From an uncultured Gammaproteobacteria bacterium (GTDB taxonomy: Bacteria > Pseudomonadota > Gammaproteobacteria > SZUA-140), in contig CAMYIG010000001.1 of the NCBI GenBank assembly GCA_947258425.1, positions 866-64,865 of the forward strand: a stretch of DNA of 64,000 nt. Reading direction: 5' to 3'. Positions 3,850-27,882 of this stretch are shown here, piece by piece (within the stretch, counting starts at the first letter, position 1; each line of letters begins with the position of its first letter). Below the pieces are notes generated by a model. That model did not search any database. It saw nothing but the letters and a program-made list of their open reading frames with translations, and had not been told where the DNA came from. Both the position numbers and the translations under genes were made by a program.

Positions 3850-4226
3850 CCTTCATTAAGAAGTTTTTTATATCGAATTGATACCTAAAAAACACCCGAT
3901 TACGGAATAATTAATAAATATCATTAAGTTAAACTTGTTATTTCGCTATTATTGAGGCAATAAACTGTTCTCTGATGAGAAAACGGTGCGCATGTCACCC
4001 ATGATCTCAACCTGACCCGTAAATGATATATCGGCTATTTACCTATAAAAATGAAATATTTGATTCAGCCGCAACTACCCCACCATCGAAAAAACAGGGG
4101 TATTTATCGTAGGTACATACTTTCCGAAACAGTAAAATCCGCTATACTTTCTCGTTTGCTACGAAAGTGGCGGCCGGCATAATCACTGGCTGCCTTTTTG
4201 CTTTATGGAATATGAAGAATTTAACC

Positions 4227-5414: not shown

Positions 5415-6319
5415 TTCGCCATTTCCTCACCCTGAATGACCTGACGCCGGCCGAACTGGAGACGTTAATACAGCGCGCCATCGAATTAAAACGGATGCGG
5501 GCTAATGGCGAAAGCTATGAGCCATTCCGCGGCAAAGTGCTCGGCATGCTGTTTGAAAAGTCGTCCACCCGTACCCGCGTCTCGTTCGAAGCGGGCATGG
5601 CTCACTTCGGCGGCAGTGCGATCTTCCTCTCGCCACGTGATACGCAGTTTGGCCGCGGCGAGCCGGTTGAAGATACCGCCCGCGTGCTATCGCGCATGGT
5701 CGATCTTATTATGATTCGCACCTATGCCCACGAGACCCTGGTTACCTTCGCCGCCCATTCTCAGGTCCCGGTGATCAACGCCCTGTCTGATATGTATCAC
5801 CCCTGCCAGCTCCTCGCGGATATGCAGACCTGGTACGAACAGCGCGGCAGTATTCGCGGCAAACAGGTGGCATGGATCGGCGACGGCAACAATATGTGCC
5901 ACTCTTATATTAATGCCGCGCGTCAATTTGGCTTTCAGTTACGTATCGCATCGCCGCCGGGCTACACCCCCGATGCCACACTGCTTGCGTCACATCAGGA
6001 CTGCGTCACACTCACTCATGACCCGCTCGAAGCGGCCAGCGGAGCGGATCTCATCGTTACCGACGTATGGGCCAGCATGGGCCAGGAAGAAGAAAGCAGC
6101 AAACGCATCCTCGACTTCAAGGCGTACCAGGTCAACAGCCACCTCATGGCTGCCGCTGACAAGGACGCCCTATTTATGCACTGTCTGCCGGCACATCGCG
6201 GCGAAGAGGTCAGCGCGGAGGTCATTGACGGACGCCAGAGCGTGGTATGGGATGAGGCGGAAAATCGCCTGCATGCGCAGAAGGCGCTGATCGAGTTTCT
6301 ACTTAAATTAAGTGCTTAA
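5411..6319 (+). CDS. argF: Ornithine carbamoyltransferase
   Basis: Carbamoyl-phosphate motif [17 protein letters not shown] and [11 protein letters not shown]. Length 302 aa. Confidence 0.92.
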
Positions 6320-6326
6320 ACATCAG

Positions 6327-7373
6327 ATGAGCGCCCTACTCGACATTAAAAACATTGAGTGCCACTACCAGGGCCAGGCGATCATTCGTGAGCTCTCATT
6401 TCATGTTAATCAAGGAGATATCTCCTGCCTGCTCGGCCCCAGTGGTTGCGGAAAAACAACCGCACTACGGGCGATCGCCGGCCTTGAACCTATCCATCAC
6501 GGCAGTATCACACTGCGCGATAGGCAGGTCTCCACTCCCAGCAATATGCTCGCGCCAGAGAAACGCAAACTGGGGATGGTATTTCAGGATTACGCCCTGT
6601 TTCCACATCTCAATGTGTACAACAACATCACCTTTGGCCTGCGCGATATGAATAAAGCTGAGAAGCAGCAACGCGCCGATGAACTCCTGGCACTGGTCAA
6701 TCTTGAGGGTTTCGGCAGACGCTACCCACACGAGCTCTCAGGAGGACAACAGCAACGTATTGCGCTGGCACGAGCCATCGCATCAAAACCCGACCTGTTA
6801 CTGCTCGACGAGCCGTTCTCCAATCTCGATATCGATCTACGAGAAAAACTGGGGCTTGAGATCCGTAATATTCTAAAAAGTCAGGGCATTACCGCTTTGT
6901 TGGTCACTCACGATCAACACGAGGCCTTTGCGCTAGGTGACATGGTTGGCGTCATGAATGAAGGGCATATCCTCCAGTGGGATACCCCGTTCAATCTCTA
7001 CCACGAACCCACCAGTCGCTTCGTCGCCAATTTTATCGGGCAGGGCATTTTCATCAAGGGGACGCTGCTCGCACCCAATTTGGTCAAAACTGATATCGGT
7101 GAAATTCAGGGCGACCGTGCCTACCCATGGCCCCTCCATTCAGATGTCGAGGTGCTGATTCGACCCGACGATATCCTCCCCGAGAGCGATAGTGGCCTAC
7201 GCGCTGAAGTTGTCGATAAGGCCTTCAAAGGGGCCGAAATTATGTACACATTGAAGCTACCCAACGGCAGCCGGGTGCTTTCACTATTTCCAAGTCACCA
7301 CCACCACGCGGTGGGTGAACAAGTTGGGATTCGCATCGCTGCAGACCACCTGGTCGCATTTCCAGCATCGTAA
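6327..7373 (+). CDS. ABC transporter ATP-binding protein (FbpC/PotA-like importer ATPase with C-terminal TOBE-like region)
   Basis: Walker A GPSGCGKTT, signature LSGGQQQR, Walker B LLLLDEPFS and H-loop VTHD. ATG at 6327 preferred over GTG 6312. No permease or binding-protein gene is adjacent. Confidence 0.85.
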   Translation: MSALLDIKNIECHYQGQAIIRELSFHVNQGDISCLLGPSGCGKTTALRAIAGLEPIHHGSITLRDRQVSTPSNMLAPEKRKLGMVFQDYALFPHLNVYNNITFGLRDMNKAEKQQRADELLALVNLEGFGRRYPHELSGGQQQRIALARAIASKPDLLLLDEPFSNLDIDLREKLGLEIRNILKSQGITALLVTHDQHEAFALGDMVGVMNEGHILQWDTPFNLYHEPTSRFVANFIGQGIFIKGTLLAPNLVKTDIGEIQGDRAYPWPLHSDVEVLIRPDDILPESDSGLRAEVVDKAFKGAEIMYTLKLPNGSRVLSLFPSHHHHAVGEQVGIRIAADHLVAFPAS

Positions 7374-7440
7374 ACAGGCAAGCCTGACACCGCAGGAAAA
7401 CTGCCCCCTGGCGGCTACGTAACACCCAACCTTTCAAACA

Positions 7441-7475
7441 AAAAAAACGGTAGGCTGCAGCAGCCTACCGTTTTT
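7441..7475. terminator. Bidirectional rho-independent terminator between the ABC ATPase (+) and cytochrome c4 (-)
   Basis: aaaaaaa-cggtaggctg-cag-cagcctaccg-ttttt: perfect 10 bp stem with a 3 nt loop, flanked by an A-run and a T-run. Confidence 0.85.
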
Positions 7476-7527
7476 CTTTGCTTCCACTGCTCACCTGACC
7501 GAAATCAGGCACTACCACCTAAATAAA

Positions 7528-8178
7528 TTAAGGTAATTGAGCCGAAAGGTAATTAGCAGCGGCGTTCACCTCTCTATCCGAGAGCTTTTTCGCAATATCA
7601 CCCATCATTCCAGCGGGATCATTTGCGCGTGCACCGCTCTTAAAATCCTTCAGCTGCTTGATGATGTAGTCACGATGCTGGCCACCAATTCTTGGAAATA
7701 CCGCGATGTTTGGCGCTTTCCCTTTACCACGATCGCCATGGCAATTCACACAACCATATACACCGGTCTTTGGGTTTCCTTCATAAAACAATTTCTTACC
7801 TTCAGCGGCTAGCTTCTTATCCACAGGTACGAGCGGTTTTTTCGCCATTTTCTGTGCAGCAAAATAAGAACCAATATCCTTGGCATCCTGTAAAGAGGCT
7901 ACCATGGCCGCCATACCCGCCATGGTGTCATTATTGGCGCGATGGCCTTTCTGAAAGTCTCTGATTTGCTTAACGATATACATTTCATACTGCCCAGCAA
8001 GACGAGGAAATGTAGCGTCAGGACTGTTGCCATCACCACCGTGGCAACCGCCACATAATCCAGCCTGCATTTCACCGGCGACTGGGTCACCTACCTTAGC
8101 AGCATGCGCCCCACTAACTAGCACCAGTGACGCCAGCCCCCCCAAAAGTGCTATCAATATGCGTGATTTCTTGATCAT
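7528..8178 (-). CDS. Dihaem cytochrome c4, periplasmic
   Basis: Signal peptide MIKKSRILIALLGGLASLVLVSGAHA. Two CxxCH haem sites (CGGCHG, CVNCHG) in duplicated halves with downstream Met ligands. Confidence 0.88.
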   Translation of the reverse strand: MIKKSRILIALLGGLASLVLVSGAHAAKVGDPVAGEMQAGLCGGCHGGDGNSPDATFPRLAGQYEMYIVKQIRDFQKGHRANNDTMAGMAAMVASLQDAKDIGSYFAAQKMAKKPLVPVDKKLAAEGKKLFYEGNPKTGVYGCVNCHGDRGKGKAPNIAVFPRIGGQHRDYIIKQLKDFKSGARANDPAGMMGDIAKKLSDREVNAAANYLSAQLP

Positions 8179-8333
8179 AAAATGGACCCTTTTATTTTTA
8201 TATTGTGCTCCCCAAACACCATATCACGCACACGAACTCGTTTACACTATCAATCTCTCTGCCTTACGTCAATCCGAAGCTGATCGAAATTACCACAATT
8301 AACGCAATTCCACACCAGGCGATCACCCCATGC

Positions 8334-9332
8334 TCATTTTGATTGCCATAATCCAGTCAATTTGGATTGATGCGACTTCAATCCCCCCTCAAGCACTTCG
8401 ACCTTTTCTTCTAATGTGCACAGTCTTTGCTCCACATCAATCATCTTCTGGTTCACCTTATTATCTGCGCGATTATCCGCCCGACCATCCACATGGCTAG
8501 CCGAGTTCTCTGGCGCATAAGTAACCTCCCCCCGCAACTCAGCGGTCACCGCTTTAACGACTTCACTATCTATTTTATGTAGCTCCTCGAGATACCCAAA
8601 GAGCATCAGTCGATCACATAATGTATTGATTTTTCTTGGTGTACCCAAGGTATAGGCAAAAATTTCATCGTAGGCTGACGCATCAAACTCGGGGTCATTT
8701 TTCCATCCCGCAGCCTCCAGTCGATGAGTGATATACCCTTGAACCTCATCGCGCTCAAGCGCCTTCAGATAATAGGAAGCAATCACACGTTGGCGCAGCT
8801 GCTCCAGCCCTTCAGCCTGCAAGGTCTTAACAAACTCCCGCTGCCCGAGGAGAAAGATCTGCAAAAGCGCAGCGCCACCGGCCTGAAAGTTAGACAGCAT
8901 ACGTAGCTCTTCCAGAGATTTAAGCGGGATATTCTGCACCTCATCAATCACTAGCAAAACCCGTTTACCGAGGCGCGCCTGTTCCACAAAAAAGGTTTCA
9001 AGCGCCTTTAACAGTGATGCCTTGTCGAGCCCTTCATGGGATAGATCAAAAGCAGAGGCGACCATCCGTAACATGTCATCGGCCTCTAACTGCGTCGTCA
9101 CAATTTTGGCGGCAACGAGATTATCCTCGGTCAGATGATCGAACATATTCTGTACCAGCGTCGTCTTGCCGGTGCCAATATCCCCCATGATGACAATAAA
9201 ACCTTCACCCTGCGTAATCCCGTAACGCAAGTAAGACATGCCACGCTTATGGCCACGGCTATTGTAAAAAAAGCGCGCATTTGGGCTCAGCTGAAACGGC
9301 TTGGCATGCAGGTTATAAAATGACTCGTACAT
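8334..9332 (-). CDS. ExeA/MshM-like AAA ATPase; candidate PEP-CTERM-locus secretion ATPase subfamily
   Basis: N-terminus MYESFYNLHAKPFQLSPNARFFY, Walker A GDIGTGKTT, Walker B LLVIDEVQ and a C-terminal coiled-coil tail. Subfamily assignment (TIGR03015-like) is from memory of the family, not a search. Confidence 0.75.
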   Translation of the reverse strand: MYESFYNLHAKPFQLSPNARFFYNSRGHKRGMSYLRYGITQGEGFIVIMGDIGTGKTTLVQNMFDHLTEDNLVAAKIVTTQLEADDMLRMVASAFDLSHEGLDKASLLKALETFFVEQARLGKRVLLVIDEVQNIPLKSLEELRMLSNFQAGGAALLQIFLLGQREFVKTLQAEGLEQLRQRVIASYYLKALERDEVQGYITHRLEAAGWKNDPEFDASAYDEIFAYTLGTPRKINTLCDRLMLFGYLEELHKIDSEVVKAVTAELRGEVTYAPENSASHVDGRADNRADNKVNQKMIDVEQRLCTLEEKVEVLEGGLKSHQSKLTGLWQSK

Positions 9333-10886: not shown

Positions 10887-11537
10887 ATGATTAAGGCGCT
10901 TTTTCCCTCACAAGTTGTCACCGTCACGGCAACGCCTGCCATGTGGGATGGCAAACTCTACCCCGAAGAGGCCGCTTTCATCCAGAAAGCGGTCATTAAA
11001 CGGAGACGCGAATTCACTGCTGGTAGACTATGTGCAAAAGCGGCGTTAAAAGCATTGGGGGTCACCGGCTTTCCAGTGCTGTCAGGGGGAGAGCGTGAAC
11101 CACTCTGGCCACCCGGCATCACCGGTAGCATCTCCCATTGCGATGACTATTGCGGAGTCGCACTGGCGCGTCAAGCAACGCTCACAAGCATTGGGCTAGA
11201 CATTGAAACCATTAGACCGTTAGACGACGACCTCGAAGCGATGATCTGCACACCGCAGGAAATAACACGCGCTAACCTATCTCCACCACCCTCAGGCAGC
11301 AATTGGCAAAAATTTATATTCAGTGCCAAAGAGTCTGTCTATAAATCACTGTTTCCAGTCACGCGAATTTACCTGGATTTTCAAGACCTCGACATAACCT
11401 TCGACAGTGACAGGTTGCAATTTTCAGCCACTCTGCTCACCCAGCTTCCAACAGAATATAACCTGCCAGACACCCTGACTGGCCACTTCAGGTACAACGA
11501 AAGTCACATCTTTACCGGAATTTCACTATCCCAATAA
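10887..11537 (+). CDS. 4'-phosphopantetheinyl transferase (EntD/Sfp type)
   Basis: WPPGITGSISHC, GLDIE and FSAKESVYKS motifs. Converges on the end of the NRPS operon (2 nt gap). Confidence 0.85.
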   Translation: MIKALFPSQVVTVTATPAMWDGKLYPEEAAFIQKAVIKRRREFTAGRLCAKAALKALGVTGFPVLSGGEREPLWPPGITGSISHCDDYCGVALARQATLTSIGLDIETIRPLDDDLEAMICTPQEITRANLSPPPSGSNWQKFIFSAKESVYKSLFPVTRIYLDFQDLDITFDSDRLQFSATLLTQLPTEYNLPDTLTGHFRYNESHIFTGISLSQ

Positions 11538-11539: not shown

Positions 11540-12142
11540 CTAATATTTACCCAGAATAAGCCGCGCCTCACCCAGTAACATTGAGGGGTCATCCGCTGAT
11601 ACCGCTTTATAGACAGCCATTACATCCACATAATAAGTATTCCCAATCCCCCCTGAGCATGGCGGCAAATAACCGCCTACATCACCGCGATCGCTTCGGT
11701 GAAGTGCCTCAACATAAACGCCTTCCGGCAGGGCAGTGGTCTCAGCCGGAACAGAAGGGAACACAATGGAAGTCGTATCATTCGCCAGCGACATTCCTAT
11801 AACGCCATGGCCACCATTCAGCATCGGCTCGTAAGTTAAATCCCCAAATGCGAGCAGCACAGCATTTGCCTGTAATGGAATGTCAGAAATTAAGAGTGAA
11901 GGACTAGCCCCGCTGCCACCAAAATTGCGGCACTGCTGACCGTCTGGCACCGAGACCCCATCCCATTCTGAATCTGTGAAAGCGACCGCCAGTTGTGCGA
12001 CCTGTTCAGCTGGCGGGTAGGCACTCAATGGCAACTCAGGTTTGGCATCACGTTTAACGTAGAAAATAATGCCGACAAGCAGCCCTATAAAAATGATCGT
12101 GGACAGCAGGTATATCAGTTTATATGACTTATTAATATGCAT
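11540..12142 (-). CDS. Membrane-anchored periplasmic protein, possibly PEBP (YbhB/YbcL)-like
   Basis: N-terminal TM LIYLLSTIIFIGLLVGIIFYV. GGSGASPSLLISDIPLQANAVLLAFGD and GGYLPPCSGGIGNTYYVDVMAVY loosely parallel the YbhB blocks GDNISPxLxWxxVP...D and GYxGxxPPxGxHRYxFxVxAL. Last gene of the NRPS operon. Confidence 0.35.
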   Translation of the reverse strand: MHINKSYKLIYLLSTIIFIGLLVGIIFYVKRDAKPELPLSAYPPAEQVAQLAVAFTDSEWDGVSVPDGQQCRNFGGSGASPSLLISDIPLQANAVLLAFGDLTYEPMLNGGHGVIGMSLANDTTSIVFPSVPAETTALPEGVYVEALHRSDRGDVGGYLPPCSGGIGNTYYVDVMAVYKAVSADDPSMLLGEARLILGKY

Positions 12143-12169
12143 TTAACCAACCCGGGGAGCTCTCAAACC

Positions 12170-13009
12170 TTAGTCTCTATTTAATTCGCGCGCATAAGCT
12201 TGCGCCATCCAGCCACTAATAGTCTCAATTAACTTTTCTTTATCTTTTCTCAGGATATAGGTGTGGTCTGATTCCGGAAAATAATTAACCTGTAGCTGGT
12301 CATTAAAATTCACGGCGCTGAACATATCCTTAAATTGTCCGGCATAATTATAGTCCTCATGGCCGCCACTGTAGACATACAACAGGTTTACTTTGCGCTC
12401 AACCAACTCGCGCAACTCTGCCTCGGTCTGTTGCTTTGGGGGTAATACCCAGAAGTAATCATCCTGACCTGGTCCATCGTCGACACCATCCCCTGAGGGT
12501 GAAATTAGACGTTTAATTCGGTTAAACCATCCACTCAACGAAAACAGACGGGCGCCATAGCGGCGCATCAGAAATGCAGGGGTACGATATGCGTAGCCGT
12601 CAAGAAAAATGGCACCGACCACTCGAGGGTCAATCACAGCCCCCTTATGCGCATTGGCAGCGCCGGTACATAACCCAAACAGGATGAACTTTTTGACGCC
12701 GTATTTACTCGTAAAGAAATCCATTGCAGCCTGAATATCACCAATGATCTGTTCTTCATAAGCACGCGTATCTTTATGCTTCTGGCTATCACCAATCCCA
12801 GATAGATCGAACCGAAAGGATCGCACACCCTGCACTGCTAAACGACGGGCTAATTCAACATGTAACCTAAAGGGGCCGACTCGATGGAGTAAGCCTGCAT
12901 TGAGCATAATAACGGCAGGCAACGTATCGTTAGCGACGGCCTCATCCACTTCGGTCGCAATGCCAACGAGGTCTTTATCCTGCCCAAAAGTAAATACGCG
13001 CTCCATCAC
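12170..13009 (-). CDS. Alpha/beta-hydrolase fold protein with a cysteine nucleophile elbow (GLCTG)
   Basis: AVIMLNAG, FDLSGIGDS, elbow FILFGLCTGAANA, and candidate acid/His residues (GGHED, ESDHTY). Start overlaps the upstream gene stop (ATGA). Candidate exosortase A-associated hydrolase family member. Confidence 0.7.
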   Translation of the reverse strand: MMERVFTFGQDKDLVGIATEVDEAVANDTLPAVIMLNAGLLHRVGPFRLHVELARRLAVQGVRSFRFDLSGIGDSQKHKDTRAYEEQIIGDIQAAMDFFTSKYGVKKFILFGLCTGAANAHKGAVIDPRVVGAIFLDGYAYRTPAFLMRRYGARLFSLSGWFNRIKRLISPSGDGVDDGPGQDDYFWVLPPKQQTEAELRELVERKVNLLYVYSGGHEDYNYAGQFKDMFSAVNFNDQLQVNYFPESDHTYILRKDKEKLIETISGWMAQAYARELNRD

Positions 13010-13788
13010 TTAGCACCCTCCGAAAGCATCATCACAATATCCTGCAATAATGTACTGAGTAGTAGTGCTGATTCGAGTTCTGATAACGCATCCCAATTGC
13101 CAGCGTCATCAATCACGCGGTATTCGACATCGGCACTCTGTAAACAATCGTAAAGCGCTTGATACTCGTCTTTAGCATCAGAACCTACTATAAATACCCG
13201 CTTTGCTTTCGCTAAAAAATCTTTTTTCAGATCTAATGCTTCAATCTCAGAACACATTTCCTCAGAAAATGAAAAACCCAACAGTTCATTTTCGCCTTCG
13301 CCCTGCCGAGGTACGCTAAAACGATCAGGGTCAGCCAACATCTGCTGATGCATAGACTTTTGTGACGCGATGTAGTCTCGTCCACTGACCACGGGATCCC
13401 AGAGCACGAGCTCTTCAATATTCAAAGACTCTATTGAGGACGCAATCACAGCCCCCAGGCGCAACCCCACTAATGACACTCGCGTATTGCCCGACAGGCT
13501 CTTTAACTCTTCCACCGCCATCGAGACATCTTCGCAGCTTTGTGTCAGACGCCACTCTTCTGACGAGCCAGATGAATCACCCGTTCCATAGTAATCAAAT
13601 CGAAGCACATGAAAACCGGCCTTCGCCAGCAGGTCGGCCAGGCGATTAAACATTTTAAATGACCGCATGTATTCCTGGCCGAATGGATAGCAAAGCACAA
13701 CACTCGTATCTCGTAAGTCACGAGATCTTGGCGGGTGATAGATGCCAAACAGCTGCTTATTGGAAGCGCCAAAAAAGAATGGATTCAT
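13006..13788 (-). CDS. Alpha/beta-hydrolase fold protein with Ser replaced by Arg at the elbow (GLRLG)
   Basis: VVLCYPFGQE, FDYYGTGDSSG, elbow VSLVGLRLGAVIA. No obvious C-terminal catalytic His. Candidate second member of the exosortase A-associated hydrolase pair. Confidence 0.65.
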   Translation of the reverse strand: MNPFFFGASNKQLFGIYHPPRSRDLRDTSVVLCYPFGQEYMRSFKMFNRLADLLAKAGFHVLRFDYYGTGDSSGSSEEWRLTQSCEDVSMAVEELKSLSGNTRVSLVGLRLGAVIASSIESLNIEELVLWDPVVSGRDYIASQKSMHQQMLADPDRFSVPRQGEGENELLGFSFSEEMCSEIEALDLKKDFLAKAKRVFIVGSDAKDEYQALYDCLQSADVEYRVIDDAGNWDALSELESALLLSTLLQDIVMMLSEGAK

Positions 13789-13929
13789 TTTTAAATCTCA
13801 AACGCCAAAAAGAAAGTGAGGTGCCACTTATAAAAACCTAAAATAGCACTCATCATAAAAAACCATTATAAGCATAAATACTGTTATCCCGAAACTGACC
13901 TATCATCAAGCATTCAAAAACAAGCACAT

Positions 13930-16900
13930 CTATTTATTGAGCAACCTATTTTTAATTTTATTAAAAAAACCGGGAGATGCCGCAGCTTTTCGCTCAACGT
14001 TCGCTGACGAATCGACCGATCGTTGTTGTTGCCCCCCTGTGTCCTGTATATCAGGCTTACTGTCCACATCAGGAAGCGAATGCGTTGCCGCAATGGCTCC
14101 CAGCGACTCCATCAATAAAACCCTTGGTGAAATCACAACCGCGGTCTCTTTCCGAATGCGTTCAATCACCTTCATCGACAACAATGAGTGCCCACCCAGA
14201 TCAAAAAAATTATCGTGCACACTCACTCGTTCAATACCCAGTGCTTCACACCACACGGTAGCAAGGTATTTTTCTGTCCCTGTTTCAGGGGAGACATACT
14301 CATCATTTTCATAACTATCACCAAAGGGCGCTGGTAAACGTTTCCGATCTAATTTACCGTTCGGTGTCACCGGAAAACCGTCCATTTCAACGATGTGCTG
14401 AGGCACCATATATTCGGGTAACAGGGCACGCAAGTGCGTCCTTATTTCTGTCACTGTGGCGCCTTCGCCTCGCTTATAAATAAGATAGGCCACCAGGCGA
14501 TGATCACCAGGACGATTTTCCCAGACGTTCACTACAGCTCGCTCAATGGCATCATGTTCGCTGAGCGCAGACTCAATCTCACCCAGCTCTATTCTAAAGC
14601 CTCGCACCTTTACCTGATTATCAATACGTCGCATGTACTCAACATTACCATCATCGTGATAGAACGCGAGGTCACCTGTGCGATAGAGTCGACTATTTTC
14701 ATCAAATGGATTTGGAACAAAACGCTCTGCCGTCAATTCTGGGCGATTCAGATAATCGCGCGCAAGGCCAGCGCCACCAATATAAATCTCACCCGGGACA
14801 CCAACAGGCACAGGAAGGAGATGCTCATCAAGCAGATAAATCTGCGTGTTTTCGATCGGTCGACCGATCAATACTGTTGCCTCATCCGCATCACGTTTCA
14901 CTTGATAACGCATCGACCATACTGTCGTTTCTGTCGGGCCATAGAGATTCCATAACTCATCGCATTTTTCAACAAGTTGGCTTGCCAGTTCACGCGGCAT
15001 TGCTTCACCACCGCATAATACCTTCAGGCCTGATGTGCCCTGCCAATCTGATTCCAGTAGTAAACGCCAGGTAATCGGGGTTGCCTGCATAACAGTGATA
15101 TTTTCACTGGCGATAAGCGCCAGTAGACGGGTGCCATCAGAAGCCGCATCACGACTTGCGATGACCGTTGTAGCACCGGTCGTCAGTGGCAAATAGAGTT
15201 CAAGTACTGCAATATCAAAAGAGATAGTGGTCACAGCAAGCAGACGATCAACTTCTGTCAAACCTGGCGCACGCCGCATCGCACAAAGAAAGTTGACCAC
15301 GGCACGGTGCGGCAGCGTCACTCCCTTGGGCTTTCCGGTTGAACCGGATGTATAAATCACGTAAGCAAGATCATCAGATTGACCTTGCTTTAGCGGGTTT
15401 CGATCATCTTCTGCAGCAATCTTCGACCAGTCACTATCGATAAAGACGGTGCGCCCCGCATAACCCGTCAGACGTTCTTTTAACGCCGCCTGAATCACCA
15501 CTAACGGGGCCTGACTATCGCTCAACATATATGCCAGACGTTCTGTTGGATACGCAGGATCAAGCGGCACGTAAGCGCCCCCTGCTTTCAAAATGCCCAA
15601 CAACCCCACCATCATATCCAGTGAGCGCTCAACACATATGCCGATTAGTTGGCCGGGCTCGACACCTGCTTTAATTAAATAATGCGCTAGCTGGTTTGCT
15701 CGCTTATTTAGTTCGGCATAACTTAAATGCTTATCCTCAAAAACGCATGCGGATTTATCGGGAAAACGTTCAACTTGCGCCTCGAAGAGCTCATGCAGCT
15801 TGCTTTCAGCAGGAAACACTACGTTTGTGTTGTTCCACTCATTAATAATAAGTGACCTCTGCTCATCATCAAGTAACGACAGTGTTGCCAATTTTGCATC
15901 AGGTTGCTCAACAACCCGCATGAGCAGCACCTCAAACAGTTTAACCAAACGTTCAATGGTGTGTGCCTCGAATATATCAGCATTATATGCTAGTGCACCT
16001 GAAATTCCATCCGCGCTATCAGACAACATTAAATCAAGGTCAAAATGAGCAGTACCTCTTTCAAATTGATATTCACTCACTTCCACGCCAGACAAAGGAA
16101 AGTTATCGCACAAGGTTTCATTATGAAGCATAAACATCACCTGAAACATTGAGGTATGATTCAATGCTCGATGATGAGGAATCTTCTCCAGAATACTTTC
16201 GAACGGAAGATCCTGATGCGAAAAACAATCGACAGTAGACTCAGCAACATGCTCGACAATATCTCTAAACGTTGAGTCTGATGAAAACTCTGTACGCATC
16301 ACCAGATTATTAGAAAAATCCCCGAACATACTATCTAACTCTGGTCGGCTGCGGACCGTCGGTGACATACCCGTTAAAATATCTTCCTGGTTAGTATAGC
16401 GATACAGCAGACACTGGAATGCAGATAACAGCGACATAAATAAAGTCGAACCTAACGTTCCGCTTAATATTTTAAGTTGCTGGGAAAGCGTCTTCGGCAA
16501 TAAAAACCGATGGGTCCTACCCTTAAATGACATCACTCTTGGCCGCGGATGATCAGTCGGTAGATCAAGCACCGTGTTCGCATCCTGTAGATAGGCTTTC
16601 CAGTACTCCAGCTGGTTATTCACCTCATTAGACGCCAGCCAGTACTTTTCCCATAATGCAAAGTCACGGTACTGCGCAATGAAATTATCACCAGCCCCAT
16701 CGCCTACAGGGTTAGAGCCATCCGTTTTATGCGCGTTATAAGTAGTACTTATCTCGTTAACAAGTAACCGTACAGAAAGACCATCCATTGCGAAATGATT
16801 CGTTGTCATGATGAACACATGCTCATCTTCCGCCAACTGAATAACCAACACCCGTAAGTTAATATCATTGGTAAGATCAAACGGCGTACTAATTTCAGCA

Positions 16901-17325
16901 TTCACCGTTTCGAGCAGTTGACGTTCTTGCGCCTCAGAGGAGATAGCCTTCAAATCATCAACGACCATGCTAAACAGCGTCGATGGCAACAACTTCTGAT
17001 AAAGTTCATCCTCGCCCTCTAAACAGGCAGTTCGTAACACTTCATGACGTTGTACTACCTGCTGAAGACTTTTCTCGAGAATTGTAAGATCTAACTCACC
17101 CTTGAGTCGCACTATAAAAGATTCATTATAAGCAGAGCTTGCAGGATCCATCTGATAGATAAACCAGAAACGTCGTTGCGCTGATGACAAAGGCACCATT
17201 ACATCTTCAGCAACACGTGGCAGCGGTAATTGTTTCAATCCAATCTCGATGTCATCCAGCATTACGTCAAATAATTCGAGCTGATCTGAAGAGAGCGCAT
17301 CCAGCGCTTGATATACATCCTTCAT
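13930..17325 (-). CDS. NRPS3: C-A(Gly-like)-T, no TE/R/terminal C domain
   Basis: - C domain about 15886-17208: LSSAQRRFWF, NHFAMDGLS.
- A domain about 14326-15828: LAYVIYTSGSTGKPKGV, NLYGPTETT, YRTGDL, PNGKLDRK.
- T domain about 14086-14298: FFDLGGHSLL.
- Then a 51 aa tail.
- Hand-derived code DILQLGLVW(K).
- The ATG overlaps the NRPS2 stop (ATGA). Confidence 0.92.
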   Translation of the reverse strand: MKDVYQALDALSSDQLELFDVMLDDIEIGLKQLPLPRVAEDVMVPLSSAQRRFWFIYQMDPASSAYNESFIVRLKGELDLTILEKSLQQVVQRHEVLRTACLEGEDELYQKLLPSTLFSMVVDDLKAISSEAQERQLLETVNAEISTPFDLTNDINLRVLVIQLAEDEHVFIMTTNHFAMDGLSVRLLVNEISTTYNAHKTDGSNPVGDGAGDNFIAQYRDFALWEKYWLASNEVNNQLEYWKAYLQDANTVLDLPTDHPRPRVMSFKGRTHRFLLPKTLSQQLKILSGTLGSTLFMSLLSAFQCLLYRYTNQEDILTGMSPTVRSRPELDSMFGDFSNNLVMRTEFSSDSTFRDIVEHVAESTVDCFSHQDLPFESILEKIPHHRALNHTSMFQVMFMLHNETLCDNFPLSGVEVSEYQFERGTAHFDLDLMLSDSADGISGALAYNADIFEAHTIERLVKLFEVLLMRVVEQPDAKLATLSLLDDEQRSLIINEWNNTNVVFPAESKLHELFEAQVERFPDKSACVFEDKHLSYAELNKRANQLAHYLIKAGVEPGQLIGICVERSLDMMVGLLGILKAGGAYVPLDPAYPTERLAYMLSDSQAPLVVIQAALKERLTGYAGRTVFIDSDWSKIAAEDDRNPLKQGQSDDLAYVIYTSGSTGKPKGVTLPHRAVVNFLCAMRRAPGLTEVDRLLAVTTISFDIAVLELYLPLTTGATTVIASRDAASDGTRLLALIASENITVMQATPITWRLLLESDWQGTSGLKVLCGGEAMPRELASQLVEKCDELWNLYGPTETTVWSMRYQVKRDADEATVLIGRPIENTQIYLLDEHLLPVPVGVPGEIYIGGAGLARDYLNRPELTAERFVPNPFDENSRLYRTGDLAFYHDDGNVEYMRRIDNQVKVRGFRIELGEIESALSEHDAIERAVVNVWENRPGDHRLVAYLIYKRGEGATVTEIRTHLRALLPEYMVPQHIVEMDGFPVTPNGKLDRKRLPAPFGDSYENDEYVSPETGTEKYLATVWCEALGIERVSVHDNFFDLGGHSLLSMKVIERIRKETAVVISPRVLLMESLGAIAATHSLPDVDSKPDIQDTGGQQQRSVDSSANVERKAAASPGFFNKIKNRLLNK

Positions 17326-20300
17326 TTCACGACTCCTTTTTGCTCAACTAAACTGCGCGCGCTCAGTTGGTCACTCACTTCCCCTTTCGACAACTGTTTA
17401 ATCCGTTCAATCAGCCCTATCACACGCGAGTTAACATCCTCTTTAATCGCTACATTATTTTCACCATTCCGATATATTGCGCCACCCAATAGTGAGTGCA
17501 CAAAATAATGCCGCTCTTCAACATCAAACAACGCTCTAACCTTGTCAAAGTTTGCACCACCAATCTGACAAACAGCCAAATCGTGCTCACGCGCAGATTC
17601 ATCAATAAGGTGTGCGATGATCCCTGTTTCGAGTTTAGCCAGATAAGTAGAATACTTACCATAAGATGGCGCAACGGCACCAAGATCAGTGACAAAAAAT
17701 AGTGAAAATGCAGCTTCATCATAGATAGGAGTATTAACATACGGGACATGAATCGCGCGACTGATCTGCGCATCCTTTGTTAACGTGACCAAACGATGTT
17801 CAATGGGATGATAATAATATGTGCCCGCAGGAATGCCTTCGATTCTTCCTGGTTTAACATGCAGATAAACCTGCGTAGCGTAAAGCCCACCAGGGGAGGA
17901 ATAAAGATACTTTGGTTTACCATCCACCTCTATCTGATAAAAACATGACAGAAAATCACTAAACTGATCAAAAGGGATACACTCCAGTGAAAAACGTCGA
18001 TGACTAAAACGGTTCGCATATTTTTTCCTGAACGCTTCATCATCCACTGGTTTTTTGAGTTGTAAAAACTCTTTGCCTTCATCATTTTTTCGTATACCGG
18101 GCTGCGAATTCTTAAATGCCTCTCGCTCCGCGGGGTCGCGTAACTGCTGATATGAGGCAATCAGTGCTTTGACGCCCGAAAGTTCGCCTTCATCCTCGAC
18201 CGTTTTTTCCTTGTTGTCCTGCGCGCTATTGCTACGACAATAATCAGCAATGGCATTGACACTCTGAAGACGAAATATCTCATCCATACGCGGCCGAAAA
18301 CCAAACATCTTCTCCAGTTGATTACCAATCTTCACCATATCAAGCGAATTGGCACCCATTGATATCAGGTTCGCTTCATTCGACAGGTTATCCATTGATA
18401 ACAGCTCACAGATCATCGCATTCAACTGCGTAACAATCTCAGAATTATTAGCGGAGAGTGCGCTCTCTGAAGGACTGTCCTGCGGCTCCGGAAGTGATTT
18501 TCGATCCACTTTTCCGTTACGTGTCAGTGGCAGCTCATCCAGCGTTATAAACATGGCAGGCACCATGTAGTCTGGAAGTCTGCTAGCGAGATGTTCACGC
18601 AATTTATTTTCATCGATGGCATATCCCGGCGCCTTAACGAGATAAGCCAGCAGTCGCTGTTTTCCCGTCTGCGCAACCGTTACAACAGCGCTTATCACTG
18701 ACTCATGCTGTTGCAGTGCAGCCTCTACTTCACCACACTCAATCCGCTGCCCCTGAATCTTTATCTGAAAATCGGTACGGCCGACAAATTGAATATTGCC
18801 ATCGGGGAGGTAACGTCCAAGATCGCCAGTACGGTAAATCCGTTCACCAGTCTCCGGATGTTTTACAAATTTTTCAGCGGTTTTCTGTTCGTCCTGCCAG
18901 TACCCCATCGCAACGCCGATGCCGGCGACACACATCTCACCAGCCACCCAGTCAGGACACGGCGCAAGCGCCTCATCAAGAATATAATAGCGAGTATTCG
19001 CGATCGGCTTTCCGTATGGGATGCTTTTCCACGTGGGGTCAATCTGCTCAACGGGATACCAGATATTCCAGAGTGTCGTCTCCGTCGGCCCACCCACACT
19101 CACCAGTTGCGCACCTGTTTCTTTTTTAAGCCGCGCTGGCAACCCCAGTGGAATCCAGTCCCCCCCCAGAAATGCAGTCCGTAGACTATCGGGCGCGGTA
19201 CCGGGGTGACTCTCTACGTAGCACAGCAGCATATCCATCATTGCCGGTACAGAATTCCAGATGGTGGGCCTAAACTTCTGCATCATATCCACCCAATGAG
19301 CCGGGTCTCGACGCTCTTCTGGATCGGGCATCACGATTGAGCCGCCAGCACCCAGCATGCCAAACATGTCATAAATCGACATGTCATGATGCAGTGCAGT
19401 GACCGCTAATACACGGTCATCCGAACCCACATTAAAACAGCGGTTGGTTTCAACGATGGCATTCACCACGCCTCGATGGTTTAACATCACCCCTTTCGGT
19501 GTTCCGGTCGAACCAGAGGTATAGATGACATAAGCAAGATCATCTGGGGTCTGCAAATGAGCTAATGGCCCATCATCATATTCAGCGATATCATCGCTAT
19601 CCACACATAGCAGGGTTAAACCTTCAGGCCAGTTAATTTTATCAACCAACCACGACTGCGTTAATACTAGTTCAACGCCACTATTTGCTAACAACTTGCA
19701 TAAGCGCTCGCTCGGCTGCAAGGCATCCATTGGCGCATAGGCAGCACCCGACTGCAGCACACCATAGGCCGCAACCGCTTGCTCCCATCCTTTATCCATT
19801 ACAATCGCGACCAGCTTATTCGGCATGGCGTTCAGTTCACGTAAGCGTCTTCCCCAGCGGTTTGCTAACCCCAATAACTCTCTATAATTTAATGTTCGTT
19901 GAGTGGTAATCACGGCATCACTATCACCGGCTGTTTCAGCATGCGCAATAAACAGGTCTTGCAGCAGCCCTTGTGGCACATCGCGCTGATTATCATTGAC
20001 CTGTGCTCGACGTATTTTCTGCGACTCAGGCAGTAATCTCGTCGTAATCTCAAGCCAGCTCGCCTGCCATGCAGATTGATCAGCGGCTAGCCACTCCAGT
20101 AGCTGAATATAGGCATGTCCCATATCCTCCTGCAGCCCATCCGGGAAAAGCTCGCTGACATAGTCCCAGTCAACACCTAAGACACCCTTATATTCATAAA
20201 TATGATTATCAAGCCAGACCTGCGGCGTCTGATTAACGGCAAAAGTGACATTACCAATCAATCTTGCCGCATTAACGGTATACGCACTCGTGCCATCGGG

Positions 20301-21503
20301 GGCCTGTGGTGCACCGGTAAACACCACCGGTTTCAGACTCTCAGAACCACTCTTACCCTGCGTTGAAAGCTCTCTCAAAATATCTACGCCAGTAAAATAG
20401 TTATGATCCAGGTCATTCCATAACTGCTGCTGCACCACTTTCGCCTCATCGAGAAAATGGGCCTTGTCACCAATATCGATATCCAGCAGGCTAAATGAAG
20501 CGGCCTCACCGACAATGTTGTTGACCTGAGGGTCGAGTGGAAAACGATTAAACTGAGGGATATTCAGACAGAAATTTCGACTTTGACTCCACATCGCAAT
20601 CACATAAGCGTATGCCGTTAGCAAAACCACAATGGGGGTGACACCACTTTGATTGCAGTGCTGTTTAATACTGTTCCAGCTAGTTGCGCCCAGTTTAAGG
20701 CCTAGCCGGGTAAAGCGTCCCTCGTCAACTTCCTGAGGTGTTTTGGCAAGCGGCAGATCTGGTGCTGCAGACATGCGATCAATGCGTTGCTTCCAGTAAT
20801 CGGCATCTGCTTTAAATTTACTTGATTTTTTTAACGCGCGCTCAGCAAATACATAATCTCTAAATGTCAGATTAAGCGGGGGCAATGGCTCATCAGGACG
20901 ATGATAAAGCTGCGCCCATTCGGTGAAAATCACCGTCAAACTCCAGCCATCTACAATCAGCGCATCGAAACCGATATGCAGCCGTAACAGTCCATCTCTC
21001 AATTGTGCCGCAGTAATGGTAAACAGTGGCCACTGGTCTGAAGGTAGCACCTGATGTGAAATATTGTATCGCAGCTCCGCCAACTTCTTCTCGCGCGCAC
21101 CTTCATCGTGCTGCGTAAGGTCGACATAATCTATTTTATAGTCGGGTGTCTCCTCTAAAATCCGCTGATCACCATCGCGACTGATCACAACCCGCATCAT
21201 TTCATGCCGCACTATAAGCTTACAAAACGCCTCATTTAAACGCGCATAGTCAAGTTCATCTTCAATTTCATGATAAGCATAGCCCGCGACTTTACCCATC
21301 TCAAATGCGCCACTGCGTCCAATCCAGTACGCCTGCTGAAGTTCAGTCAACGGAAAAGGATCATAACGCTGGGCAGGGTTCGCCGTGATTTTATCAGATG
21401 CGATGTCAATCTTTTCAGCCGCCTGCTTCTGCGCAAGCTTCTTGATTAATAAAGCTCGCTTTTCAGGAGTAAGCCCTTCTAGCCGTTTTTTAAGGTCTGT
21501 CAT
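17322..21503 (-). CDS. NRPS2: Cy-A(Cys-like)-T-Ox (heterocyclisation plus FMN-type oxidase, thiazole-forming architecture)
   Basis: - Cy domain about 20034-21362: FPLTELQQAYWIGR, and DALIVDGWS (DxxxxD in place of HHxxxDG).
- A domain about 18489-19976: LAYVIYTSGSTGTPKGV, HHDMSIYD, IWNSVPAMM, LGGDWIP, VGGPTETT.
- T domain about 18234-18446: ISMGANSLD.
- C-terminal nitroreductase/SagB-like Ox domain about 17469-18056: YSSPGGLYATQVYLHV...CQIGG. Confidence 0.9.
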   Translation of the reverse strand: MTDLKKRLEGLTPEKRALLIKKLAQKQAAEKIDIASDKITANPAQRYDPFPLTELQQAYWIGRSGAFEMGKVAGYAYHEIEDELDYARLNEAFCKLIVRHEMMRVVISRDGDQRILEETPDYKIDYVDLTQHDEGAREKKLAELRYNISHQVLPSDQWPLFTITAAQLRDGLLRLHIGFDALIVDGWSLTVIFTEWAQLYHRPDEPLPPLNLTFRDYVFAERALKKSSKFKADADYWKQRIDRMSAAPDLPLAKTPQEVDEGRFTRLGLKLGATSWNSIKQHCNQSGVTPIVVLLTAYAYVIAMWSQSRNFCLNIPQFNRFPLDPQVNNIVGEAASFSLLDIDIGDKAHFLDEAKVVQQQLWNDLDHNYFTGVDILRELSTQGKSGSESLKPVVFTGAPQAPDGTSAYTVNAARLIGNVTFAVNQTPQVWLDNHIYEYKGVLGVDWDYVSELFPDGLQEDMGHAYIQLLEWLAADQSAWQASWLEITTRLLPESQKIRRAQVNDNQRDVPQGLLQDLFIAHAETAGDSDAVITTQRTLNYRELLGLANRWGRRLRELNAMPNKLVAIVMDKGWEQAVAAYGVLQSGAAYAPMDALQPSERLCKLLANSGVELVLTQSWLVDKINWPEGLTLLCVDSDDIAEYDDGPLAHLQTPDDLAYVIYTSGSTGTPKGVMLNHRGVVNAIVETNRCFNVGSDDRVLAVTALHHDMSIYDMFGMLGAGGSIVMPDPEERRDPAHWVDMMQKFRPTIWNSVPAMMDMLLCYVESHPGTAPDSLRTAFLGGDWIPLGLPARLKKETGAQLVSVGGPTETTLWNIWYPVEQIDPTWKSIPYGKPIANTRYYILDEALAPCPDWVAGEMCVAGIGVAMGYWQDEQKTAEKFVKHPETGERIYRTGDLGRYLPDGNIQFVGRTDFQIKIQGQRIECGEVEAALQQHESVISAVVTVAQTGKQRLLAYLVKAPGYAIDENKLREHLASRLPDYMVPAMFITLDELPLTRNGKVDRKSLPEPQDSPSESALSANNSEIVTQLNAMICELLSMDNLSNEANLISMGANSLDMVKIGNQLEKMFGFRPRMDEIFRLQSVNAIADYCRSNSAQDNKEKTVEDEGELSGVKALIASYQQLRDPAEREAFKNSQPGIRKNDEGKEFLQLKKPVDDEAFRKKYANRFSHRRFSLECIPFDQFSDFLSCFYQIEVDGKPKYLYSSPGGLYATQVYLHVKPGRIEGIPAGTYYYHPIEHRLVTLTKDAQISRAIHVPYVNTPIYDEAAFSLFFVTDLGAVAPSYGKYSTYLAKLETGIIAHLIDESAREHDLAVCQIGGANFDKVRALFDVEERHYFVHSLLGGAIYRNGENNVAIKEDVNSRVIGLIERIKQLSKGEVSDQLSARSLVEQKGVVK

Positions 21504-21641
21504 ATGCTATTAATTTTTTTATTGAATACTTTTTTAGCTTAATACCATCATCATAATCATCAGTTAAATACAGGATTTAAACCGAATACAACGACAGCGA
21601 TTATCACAATCAACATGCAAAAGTGAGGATAATATTCTTTA

Positions 21642-24600
21642 TCATTCGTCTTCAAGCTCACCCAATAGCGCAAGCAACTCATCTTCGTTTACATTCTCCA
21701 GCATCATCTGTTCAATCTTGCTGGAAAAATCGACCAATCGAGGCGAAAGAAAGATCGCTTGAAGTGGAATATCAATCGCAAAGTCCTGTCGGATGCGTGT
21801 AATCAACTGCACCGCGATCAACGAATGCCCGCCAATCTCGAAGAAATTATCGTACAACCCCACCTGCTTGAGCCCCAGTAACGCCTGTAAAATAGTAGCG
21901 ACCTGAATCTCAACTTCGCTAGCAGGTGCGACATATTCTGCCTGAGTATCAATATTCCCTTGCTCCGGCACTGGGAGTTTTTTACGATTAATTTTTCCAT
22001 TCGGTAATAATGGCAATCCCGCTAGCACGACGTAATTTACGGGCACCATAAATTCAGGTAAATGTTGTCCCAGATAGTTGCGTAGCGCATTGATATTGAT
22101 GTCAGTGCCTGTGTCTGGCACCACATACGCAACAAGCTTTTTATTCCCGGGCTCATCTTCTCGCAGTAGCACAAGCGCGTCATTCACTTCGGTATTCTCT
22201 AACAGAAGCTTCTCGATCTCACCCAGCTCAATCCGATAGCCATGTAGCTTGACCTGATGGTCGATGCGCCCCATGAACTCCAGCCGCCCATCACGACCCA
22301 TGCAGACCAGGTCGCCCGTTCGATACATACGGTCATTTAAATCACCACTCACACTGTTTTTTACAAACTTTTCAGCAGTGAGCTCGGGGCGATTCAGATA
22401 ACCCCGTACCACGCCGTCACCGGCAATTACCAGTTCACCCGGCACACCCAGCGGCTGAAGTTGCATATTGTTATCCAGCACATAGGTCTGTGTATTCGCA
22501 ATCGGGGAGCCCAATGGAATATCTGCGTCTGCCTCATGTAAATGATACGTGGTTGACCAGATCGTCGTCTCAGTCGGCCCGTACATATTCGTCACTTGAC
22601 CTTTCACCAATGAACGCAGCTTTACTGCCAACTGACTCGAAAAGGCTTCACCGCCCACCATCATATGAGACAAGCATCCCAGTGCGTGATGCATCTGCTG
22701 GTCTGATGCCAGCATATTGGCCATCGTTGGCGTACATTGAAAATGCGTGACGTTGTGTCGCTCGATAAGTGCAGCGATGGAATAATCCTTATCCGCCCCA
22801 TCAGACTGCGGCGGGTTAGCCGCCTCCTTCACCTGGCTTAGATAATGGAGGTGGGCCAGTACTTTTTCGGTCTCGATGCCAAAATCGATCAGACAACCGA
22901 TCTCATCCACCCCTATTTCCTTGAGTTGATCTGCACGTTCAACGCATCGTTCAACATTCCCAAAGAGCCCGCTGTGGTTATAATAGCGATCAAACGCGAA
23001 GGCCAGCAGGCTATCTCTATCCTCATCAGAAATATTATTAAAAAACTCATCCATGGTCTGCTCTGTACCCTCGGATACCTGCTTCCACGCCGGGCTATGC
23101 CACGCGGCCGCTTTCACCAGAGAAACTGCACTTTCCAGATAGTCCATCATCGGCTGCTGTGCAACATCACGCACCTGCGCCTCATCATCGCCGATGAAGG
23201 TGTGTAGCATTAATGTGACTTGCCCATCACCTGCATGACCGGCCTCTTTCCAGGCGCTACGATAGAGCCGAATATTCTCTGCCACCTTTTCAATATCCTG
23301 TCCGAGCAGGTGCGTCAGCACATGTGCACCAATTGATCCAGCCTGTCGGAAGGTGTCAGGATTCACCGCAACCGTTACCCAAATTGGTAACTTTTCCTGA
23401 ATAGGTCTAGGGTAGGTGCGGACTTCAACATCGCCTTTCGGCCCCGCAAACGTGACAGCCTCACCTTTCCATAATTGCTGGATAGTCTCAACGGAATCAA
23501 ACATGATCTCTTTTGCGCGCGCATGATTCTCAGGCTTGATCACAAAATCATTCGGCTGCCAGCCGGGCGCAATCGAAAGCCCCGCACGGCCATTGGAAAG
23601 GTTATCCACCACCGACCACTCTTCTGCGATGCGAATAGGGCTATGCAGTGGCACCACACAACTGCCCGCACGAATACCGATGTTTTGCGTAGTGGCCGCC
23701 AGTGCGGCACCGATGACTGAGGGGTTAGGGTACAGTCCGCCAAAGGCACCGAAATGTCGCTCAGGTGTCCATAGCGCTTCGAAGCCATTTTTGTCGGCGT
23801 ATTTAGCGCTTTCGAGCAGTAACTTATACTTATCTGCCTCGCGAGATGCCTCGTCTTTTACAAAATTCCAGTAAAAAAGACTAAAGGCAATCGGCTGAGC
23901 GGGGTATCGTGTCGCCACTTCCCCAGCCTTCAGGTCATCACCGGCGTAGAGCACCAGTTTAAACCCTCGACAGAGACTCCAGAAAATCTCAAGCACGGAG
24001 ATATCAAACGATATACTGGTCACAGCCAACCACACACCCGGGGAATCATGCGCAATGCGCTCATCCATGCCTGCGAAGAAATTCACCACATTACGGTGTT
24101 CGACCATCACCCCTTTGGGACGCCCGGTCGAGCCCGAAGTATATATCACATAAGCCAGACTCGATGACGCGCACGGGATTTCAAGATTATTATCGCTCTC
24201 GACATCGATTCGACTTCGCTCAAGATCAACCTGCAACAACTTTTCACCGGGCAGATAATTTGCGTAATCAGACTGGGTAACTACCAACGCCAGCTCTGCG
24301 TCATCGGCCATATAAACCAAACGATCTTTGGGATAAGTGGGATCCAGTGGCACATAGGCCGCGCCTGTTTTCCACGTTGCCAATAGCGCGATCACCATAT
24401 CAAAGGAACGATCCAACATCACACCGACCAGATCATCTACACCCACGCCATGTTTTACCAGATAGTGCGCCAGCTGATTTGCGCGAGCATTCAACTCATG
24501 ATAACTGAGGCTGTCATTGTGAAATGCCAGCGCGGATGTATCCGGTGTAGACACTACTTGTTGTTCAAACAGCTGAAATACACATCGATTTTCAGGGTAT

Positions 24601-27815: not shown

Positions 27816-27882
27816 ATTTTTATATTAGCATTGATTTCAGCCTGTTTAAGTTCAGACCCTGTTGGACAACAAATAACATTAA

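Follow-up and report, generated by a model that had tools for sequence, protein, structure and literature searches.

Carrier-terminated assembly lines point to a putative two-part off-loading family and a tail motif on the terminal carrier

The 64,000-nucleotide stretch of DNA analysed here, called the window below (positions 866 to 64,865 of contig CAMYIG010000001.1, assembly GCA_947258425.1, from an uncultured bacterium of the Gammaproteobacteria), encodes a nonribosomal peptide synthetase (NRPS) assembly line of three proteins, NRPS1 to NRPS3, which ends in a bare carrier domain followed by a tail of 51 residues. Directly downstream lie the genes of two alpha/beta-fold proteins, hyd2 and hyd1. 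The comparison of related loci points to a large uncharacterised family of putative two-part off-loading units, represented in the window by hyd2 and hyd1, and to a recognisable tail on the last carrier of the lines that they would serve. The reading we favour, with slightly better than even confidence, is that hyd2 and hyd1 off-load the chain in trans and are recruited by the tail; release by the pair, taken without the role of the tail, we hold to be highly probable. The reading is carried by gene order, by natural fusions of carrier domains to hyd2 and by a tail motif found mostly on the carriers that directly precede hyd2.

The end of the assembly line

The assembly line and the two downstream genes comprise the following features.

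21642-27815, minus strand: NRPS1, 2057 amino acids, A-T-C-A-T with a luciferase-like monooxygenase insert in the second A domain; loading module and module 2 (Pfam, NCBIfam)
17322-21503, minus strand: NRPS2, 1393 amino acids, Cy-A-T-Ox, Ox being a nitroreductase-type oxidase (Pfam)
13930-17325, minus strand: NRPS3, 1131 amino acids, C-A-T plus tail; last module by collinearity (Pfam, NCBIfam)
14089-14268, minus strand: terminal carrier (T/PCP) domain of NRPS3, residues 1020-1079 (Pfam PP-binding, 3e-13)
13972-14085, minus strand: tail linker, residues 1081-1118, polar and fast-evolving
13933-13971, minus strand: tail end motif GFFNKIKNRLLNK, residues 1119-1131, the last 13 of the protein; conserved, basic and moderately amphipathic
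13789-13929, minus strand: spacer between NRPS3 and hyd2, 141 nucleotides, AT-rich (32% GC)
13006-13788, minus strand: hyd2, 260 amino acids, alpha/beta-hydrolase fold, proposed adaptor subunit
12170-13009, minus strand: hyd1, 279 amino acids, alpha/beta-hydrolase fold, proposed catalytic off-loading subunit

NRPS1 opens with an A domain and NRPS3 with a C domain, and by collinearity NRPS3 is therefore the last module. The line is collinear with four modules, A-T-C-A(MOx)-T / Cy-A-T-Ox / C-A-T (MOx, monooxygenase), and has no built-in release domain. NRPS3, whose start overlaps the stop of NRPS2 by four bases (ATGA), matches the Pfam families Condensation (residues 43-492), AMP-binding (514-859), AMP-binding_C (916-991) and PP-binding (1020-1079), and no further Pfam match follows residue 1079. 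The phosphopantetheine attachment site is Ser1047 in FFDLGGHSLL (codon 14185-14187), and the stop codon stands at 13930-13932. A previous interpretation of this DNA, made from the letters alone and referred to here as the sequence-only reading, had described a bare T domain with a 51-residue tail at 13933-14085, and these coordinates are exact (THSLPDV...NRLLNK, residues 1081-1131). It had also seen no thioesterase (TE), reductase (R) or terminal condensation (C_T) domain in the three proteins. The profile searches agree, as neither Pfam nor NCBIfam detects a Thioesterase, an NAD_binding_4 (R) or a second C domain in NRPS1, NRPS2 or NRPS3, and a phmmer search across the six frames of the window with nine TE-domain C-termini as queries returned no TE-like sequence. 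With a single Condensation domain in NRPS3 and 51 residues past its carrier, the line has the features of neither TE release in cis nor reductive nor C_T release. The spacer contains no open reading frame (ORF) of 100 or more amino acids, in keeping with the earlier statement that no release-domain ORF lies there, and no promoter-like or terminator-like match. Since NRPS3 orthologues from two other assemblies end at the identical place (P0002, 91% identical, 1131 amino acids; P0361, 1132 amino acids), the end of the ORF is real. The sequence-only reading had gone on to say that release must occur in trans; its premise, the lack of a cis release domain, stands, and release in trans is what we infer from it rather than a necessity.

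The second A domain of NRPS1 is split at residues ~1311-1663 by a luciferase-like monooxygenase of the MupA/Atu3671 type (TIGR04020, 484 bits). This interrupted A domain belongs to a non-terminal module, module 2. The monooxygenase-insert A domains known to us, those of MtaG and MelG, are parts of terminal modules. C-A(MOx)-T modules recur in many of the hyd2/hyd1 loci described below.

Two non-equivalent alpha/beta-fold proteins

The start of hyd1 overlaps the stop of hyd2 by four bases, and both proteins match the Pfam families Hydrolase_4 and Abhydrolase_1/6. Despite the common fold they are not equivalent, one being an Arg-elbow protein without canonical triad and the other a Cys-His-Asp hydrolase. 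In hyd2 the elbow reads G-L-R-L-G and its Arg110 (13459-13461) is invariant in 82 of 82 relatives; the alignment of the same 82 relatives shows no conserved His column in the C-terminal half. A further residue, Cys33 (13690-13692), at the end of strand 3 and beside Arg110, is kept in 79 of the 82. Having neither an elbow nucleophile nor a catalytic His, hyd2 does not qualify as a catalytically competent alpha/beta hydrolase. In hyd1 the elbow reads G-L-C-T-G (G-L-C-S/T-G in the family), Cys114 (12668-12670) and His249 (12263-12265) are present in 77 of 77 relatives each, and Asp137 (12599-12601) in 83-90%. The AlphaFold2 models, with a mean confidence score (pLDDT) of 87 for hyd1 and 90 for hyd2, place the Cys of hyd1 and the Arg of hyd2 at the strand-turn-helix elbow and the His of hyd1 past the last strand. 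Judged by conservation and by the secondary structure of the model, from which the putative triad was assigned, hyd1 has the makings of a catalytically competent alpha/beta hydrolase. Both models begin with core beta strands from residue 2 and have no extra N-terminal domain. Neither protein matches PF00975 at E <=0.01, the family that would mark a type II thioesterase. Averaged over the loci, hyd2 proteins carry a charge of -6 and hyd1 proteins of +4. The proposal of the sequence-only reading that both alpha/beta-fold proteins are candidates for release is thus borne out in so far as they are by far the best candidates, given their position in 65 of 80 loci and more than 10 carrier-hyd2 fusions (see below), and has to be amended in that they are not interchangeable hydrolases.

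Distribution, gene order and natural fusions

A profile of hyd2 found at least 560 relatives in species-representative genomes, from which 80 loci were fetched, and 3729 cluster representatives at E <=1e-30 among 1.84 billion proteins. The gene for hyd1 directly follows that for hyd2 in 77 of the 80 loci. A carrier-terminated NRPS or polyketide synthase (PKS) lies directly upstream of hyd2 in 65 and elsewhere in the locus in 6 more, the remaining loci being mostly cut by contig ends. The loci come from Gemmatimonadota, Myxococcota including Corallococcus, Kangiellaceae, Acidobacteriota, Nitrospinota, Zixibacteria and others, and the upstream enzyme may be an NRPS or a PKS, for example KS-AT-KR-DH-T. 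No TE-like domain was found in the hyd2/hyd1 loci fetched. Loci of intermediate distance with the same gene order and an adjacent 4'-phosphopantetheinyl transferase (PPTase) gene are L084 (hyd2 59% identical) and L087 (49%).

In a number of organisms the carrier and hyd2 are parts of one polypeptide. Such fusions are encoded in L070 and L073 and in three Kangiellaceae loci, and are further represented by P0374, P0409, P0417, P0432, P0455 (ER-KR-ACP-hyd2, ACP denoting an acyl carrier protein domain), P0469 and P0480 (KS-AT-ACP-hyd2), as well as by P0470, whose C-terminal 420 residues are identical to those of the L070 fusion. Fusions of hyd2 to hyd1 also exist, namely P0372 and a protein of 611 amino acids on an Azospirillum brasilense plasmid (NZ_CP059452.1; L089 8158-9993) that is annotated as 'alpha/beta fold hydrolase' and retains the elbows G-L-R-L-G and G-L-C-A-G. 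As the order of the fused parts, carrier-hyd2-hyd1, is the order of the genes, the fusions argue for a complex with hyd2 in the middle. The operon of the Azospirillum fusion encodes an ACP, an amino acid-[ACP] ligase, an acyl-CoA dehydrogenase family protein, a DUF1839 protein and a GH2 enzyme, which suggests that the pair is also tied to carrier-loading systems of the aminoacyl-tRNA synthetase-like (aaRS-like) type. By gene neighbourhood, the pair appears to serve NRPS, PKS, A-T didomain and aaRS-like ligase/ACP systems alike.

The three Kangiellaceae fusions (L008 2761-6159, L018 2601-6056 and L020 2595-6053, all on the minus strand) are second, divergently transcribed (C)-A-T-hyd2 genes. 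Their hyd2-like domain has the elbow G-F-R-F-G, and they adjoin a tailed C-A-T gene with stand-alone hyd2 and hyd1. In these organisms a stand-alone and a fused hyd2 may accordingly share a single hyd1. In P0488 (1851 amino acids) and P0406 the architecture is C-A-T-C-hyd2, with hyd2 after a C domain rather than a carrier; P0488 has the tail-like segment GGLFNWVRKSFNK between T and the next C and looks like a tailed synthetase fused to a C-hyd2 protein. In P0435 (622 amino acids) hyd2 is fused to a domain of about 350 residues without a Pfam match; a relation of this domain to the Acetyltransf_6 protein of the window (29255-30481) was considered and rejected, as there is no similarity.

A conserved end on a variable tail

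The tail of NRPS3 consists of two parts, a fast-evolving linker and a conserved end. Between the window protein and its orthologue P0002 the linker (residues 1081-1118) differs at 14 of 38 positions, and in P0361 it contains an insertion or deletion. The last 13 residues, GFFNKIKNRLLNK, with a charge of +4, differ at one position from each of the two orthologues. In keeping with the earlier description of the tail, the linker is polar and the end is basic and, to a moderate degree, amphipathic.

The same build is found across the loci. Most terminal carriers in front of hyd2 bear a tail of 27-58 residues made of a variable low-complexity linker and a short basic-hydrophobic end, for example LFSKIKNIFGN, KGLLGKLFGR, GLSGRLLRAVKR, LAQRLFNKLRRNLPGRSD and RGLFGKLKNPFFKKK, and further RKGLLGKLFGR (L040), TSFVGKLKSWLQR (L068) and SLFSKIKNIFGN (L020). 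A rule for the motif looks at the last 18 residues and asks for a net charge of +2 or higher, four or more hydrophobic residues and a spacing of the i/i+3/i+4 kind. It was satisfied as follows.

Terminal carriers immediately upstream of hyd2: 49 of 65
Remaining carrier-ended synthases of these loci: 2 of 37 (L022 and L043)
Unrelated carrier-ended NRPS homologues: 0 of 24
Long ORFs of the loci taken together: 9%

The exceptions in L022 and L043 also end in a carrier and lie next to the pair in another gene order, with no synthase gene after them. The motif occurs in none of the 12 direct carrier-hyd2 fusions, neither in the linker nor at the C-terminus. In 15 of the 65 unfused loci the pair is kept without the motif, and because these loci are spread over at least nine separate lineages of the hyd2 tree the motif is probably old and often lost. 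A compensating basic helix on hyd1 or hyd2 was sought in the tail-less loci and none was found; nor do motif-bearing and tail-less systems differ in charge.

Tails at internal junctions are unlike the terminal motif, being Arg-rich (RRQAMxRRRR) or acidic. In loci of the Gemmatimonadota type (L003, L006, L007, L013, L015, L026 and others) the NRPS before the terminal PKS ends in an Arg-rich tail such as RRQAMMRRRRG. This is a different recurrent motif and probably a docking element.

Relation to known systems

Release in trans from TE-less lines and docking tails on carriers are both already known. Stand-alone alpha/beta hydrolases and type II thioesterases are among the enzymes that act in this way. 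Another is SurE, an off-loading cyclase of the penicillin-binding protein type that releases the product of a TE-less line in trans (PMC10835440). The system of the window shares with SurE-type release the carrier-ended line and the separate enzyme gene beside the last synthetase; it differs in being a two-part unit of an Arg-elbow protein and a Cys-His-Asp hydrolase, with neither a beta-lactamase fold nor a match to PF00975. Short C-terminal motifs of carriers are known to recruit downstream or releasing enzymes through docking of a short linear motif (SLiM) to a beta-hairpin domain, as in enacyloxin chain release and at other PCP-to-C junctions (PMC9113145, citing Kosol et al. 2019). The tail described here resembles such SLiMs in that it is a disordered C-terminal extension of a carrier with an end motif of less than 15 residues. 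Its motif is basic and moderately amphipathic, however, its docking is a prediction, and the models of hyd2 and hyd1 are without the N-terminal alpha-beta-beta-alpha-alpha domain. Compared with the membrane-targeting helices of MinD and FtsA, the tail end has the same place at the extreme C-terminus, a flexible linker before it and a similar hydrophobic/basic pattern, whereas the protein context is another, the motif is missing from all carrier-hyd2 fusions and membrane binding is a prediction.

Among curated families the best matches are hydr2_PEP (TIGR03101, 1e-29) for hyd2 and hydr1_PEP (TIGR03100, 6e-23) for hyd1, two families of the exosortase A (XrtA)/PEP-CTERM system. Like these, hyd2 and hyd1 are two different alpha/beta hydrolases whose adjacency is obligatory, and an XrtA system is present in the window, as the context of that pair calls for. 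In contrast to members of these families, the scores are about half the cutoffs (hyd2, 103.9 bits against 202.75; hyd1, 81.4 bits against 168.45), which places both proteins outside them, and only the N-terminal halves align (residues 3-143 of hyd2). A second set of A-T, hyd2 and hyd1 genes beside an exosortase gene in L051/L052 was considered as a canonical exosortase A cassette and rejected, its NCBIfam scores being below the cutoffs. The carrier-dependent alpha/beta hydrolases GrgF (6lzh), DcsB (7d78), LuxD (1tht) and RhlA (8ik2) are 12-18% identical in sequence. They are single-subunit enzymes with a Ser nucleophile, and we know of no description of an Arg-elbow partner for any of them. 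A literature search returned no description of the hyd2/hyd1 pair, and TIGR03100 was mentioned once in passing. The system of the window differs from the known ones in the obligatory pair of Arg-elbow protein and Cys-His-Asp hydrolase, the breadth of its client systems, the basic tail motif and the homology to the exosortase A pair.

Proposed mechanism and alternative explanations

How might such a pair release the chain? Starting from the observed domain content and absence of cis release, residue conservation, folds, synteny, fusions and motif specificity, a model can be drawn in which assembly of the complex, the catalytic role of Cys114 and tail docking are proposed from sequence, predicted structure and comparative genomics. 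The finished chain would sit as a thioester on the last carrier of NRPS3 and be removed in trans by hyd2 and hyd1, which are encoded directly downstream and probably co-transcribed with NRPS3; the genes are coupled by overlaps or close spacing, with no terminator-like match between them. The adaptor hyd2 would be seated beside the carrier domain, and hyd1 would take the chain onto Cys114 of the putative triad Cys114-His249-Asp137, followed by hydrolysis or by transfer to an acceptor. Cys-nucleophile alpha/beta hydrolases such as polyhydroxyalkanoate (PHA) synthase act as acyltransferases, and by this analogy transfer rather than hydrolysis is a live option for hyd1. The tail would serve as a flexible tether with a short basic amphipathic helix, which keeps the acidic hyd2, and through it hyd1, at the last carrier; the carrier-hyd2 fusions of other organisms would do the same job covalently. 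In favour of docking are the specificity of the motif for carriers served by the pair, its lack in the 12 fusions and the opposite charges of hyd2 (-6) and tail end (+4), and the SLiM systems named above set a precedent. Several findings weigh against this proposal, above all against its part on the tail. Since the unfused tail-less loci retain the pair, the tail appears dispensable. When hyd2 and hyd1 of systems without a tail or with a fusion are aligned, one or two columns are marginally relaxed and no binding site stands out. Conservation of the motif extends to its pattern only and the motif closely resembles the membrane helices of MinD and FtsA, the motif rule was devised after the data had been seen, and many of the loci are phylogenetically related. 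The hydrophobic moment of GFFNKIKNRLLNK is 0.55, a value reached by 25% of shuffled sequences of the same composition; E. coli MinD gives 0.38-0.56 and FtsA 0.78, and the measure does not discriminate. Finally, with its near-invariant Cys33 and a conserved pocket, hyd2 may possess a non-canonical active site rather than be a dead enzyme.

The two roles that the sequence-only reading had offered for the tail, docking and membrane association, both stand. For the function of the tail taken by itself, we give docking about an even chance, a membrane anchor a distinctly smaller one and any other role one that is smaller still; the fusion data lean to docking and the sequence pattern leans to a membrane helix of the MinD/FtsA kind. 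If the tail is an anchor, which we consider possible and clearly less probable than recruitment, the same pair would release the chain and a MinD/FtsA-type helix would keep the terminal carrier against the inner side of the cytoplasmic membrane for release, export or transfer of the product. The E. coli proteins end in KKGFLKRLFGG (MinD) and GSWIKRLNSWLRKEF (FtsA; both ends taken from the genome), resemble the tails of L040, L068, L020 and the window and satisfy the motif rule. An anchor would also suit the position of the motif (residues 1119-1131 of 1131) after a variable low-complexity linker, its conservation as a mere pattern, its repeated loss with retention of the pair and with no clearly relaxed columns of hyd2 or hyd1 in tail-less loci, and the on average basic charge of hyd1. 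Yet none of the 12 direct fusions has such a helix in linker or C-terminus, in the tail-less loci neither hyd1 nor hyd2 has the motif in its place, the amphipathicity of the window motif is moderate and not above that of shuffled sequences, and a literature search gave no paper that links a membrane-targeting helix with an NRPS.

It could also be imagined that hyd2 and hyd1 are not release enzymes at all and instead edit mis-primed carriers in the manner of a type II TE or tailor the product, and that release is spontaneous, for example by cyclisation, or due to an enzyme encoded elsewhere. The closest solved relatives of both proteins are generic esterases, and a type II TE could be encoded in the genome beyond the 64 kb of the window. 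We nevertheless hold this to be improbable, as the pair stands at the carrier-terminated end in 65 of 80 loci and is fused to it in more than 10 cases, no TE-like domain occurs in those loci, and a Cys nucleophile with an obligatory Arg-elbow partner and no match to PF00975 is unlike the Ser-using type II TEs. That a frameshift or truncation has artificially removed a release domain from the line is the least probable explanation by far, and nothing was found in its favour. Three independent assemblies stop alike, a spacer of just 141 nucleotides separates NRPS3 from hyd2, the six-frame TE search was negative, and dozens of distant loci share the architecture.

If recruitment of the pair in trans is the correct reading, assembly lines with a bare carrier end, often called incomplete by genome-mining tools, would in these cases carry the signature of a large two-part release family of many phyla. 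Pair and tail motif are recognisable, so that annotators could call such lines complete. A Cys nucleophile tends to favour transfer over hydrolysis, and the release chemistry may be unusual. Engineers of assembly lines could make use of a portable short tail that recruits a release unit or anchors a line to the membrane. The homology to the exosortase A pair, together with the embedding of the cluster described in the next section, offers a handle on what those hydrolases do, which has been asked since 2006.

Genomic context

The surroundings of the assembly line contain the following features.

10887-11537, plus strand: Sfp/EntD-type PPTase, primes carrier domains
11540-12142, minus strand: protein of 200 amino acids after hyd1, with a hydrophobic segment at the N-terminus and without a match to any family
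8334-9332, minus strand: XrtA/PEP-CTERM system-associated ATPase (TIGR03015, 363 bits, cutoff 324)
34904-63927, minus strand: XrtA/PEP-CTERM exopolysaccharide locus with PrsK, PrsR, XrtA-EpsI, PrsT, export protein, chain-length determinant, Tyr kinase and outer-membrane protein
54407-54970, plus strand: PEP-CTERM protein

Of the related loci, only L001, the closest orthologous one, also has the 200-residue protein after hyd1, which on this ground seems to lie outside the conserved unit. The NRPS cluster is embedded between the XrtA-associated ATPase gene and the rest of a complete XrtA/PEP-CTERM locus, in which XrtA, PrsK, PrsR, PrsT and others score above their cutoffs, and a Kangiellaceae genome (L008, hyd2 39% identical) shows the same embedding. 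As XrtA markers lie within 10 kb in 5 of the 80 related loci, the link to XrtA appears to be lineage-specific, apart from the homology to the curated PEP families. A more speculative extension, which we regard as rather unlikely, is that the pair is no hydrolase but a general transferase for acyl or peptidyl chains on carrier proteins, and that in the window organism and in Kangiellaceae the NRPS replaces the ligase and ACP of the exosortase A system. Cys114 would then hand a thiazole-containing peptide on to an acceptor close to the membrane that belongs to the XrtA/PEP-CTERM system, be it a lipid, a sorted protein or a repeat unit of the exopolysaccharide, with the tail holding the last carrier there. 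Were this true, it would give a first function to the PEP-CTERM ligase, ACP, hydrolase-1 and hydrolase-2 genes.

The GC content is 48% in the NRPS cluster (11540-28617), 43% in the XrtA locus (34904-63927) and 52% in the left flank (1-9332), a contrast that could point to insertion of the NRPS block. Two genes on the plus strand separate the NRPS cluster from the XrtA locus, one for a protein of 706 amino acids with four Big_9/cadherin-like repeats (30822-32942) and one for a protein of 531 amino acids whose N-terminus is weakly similar to the pectate lyase PelN (33019-34614).

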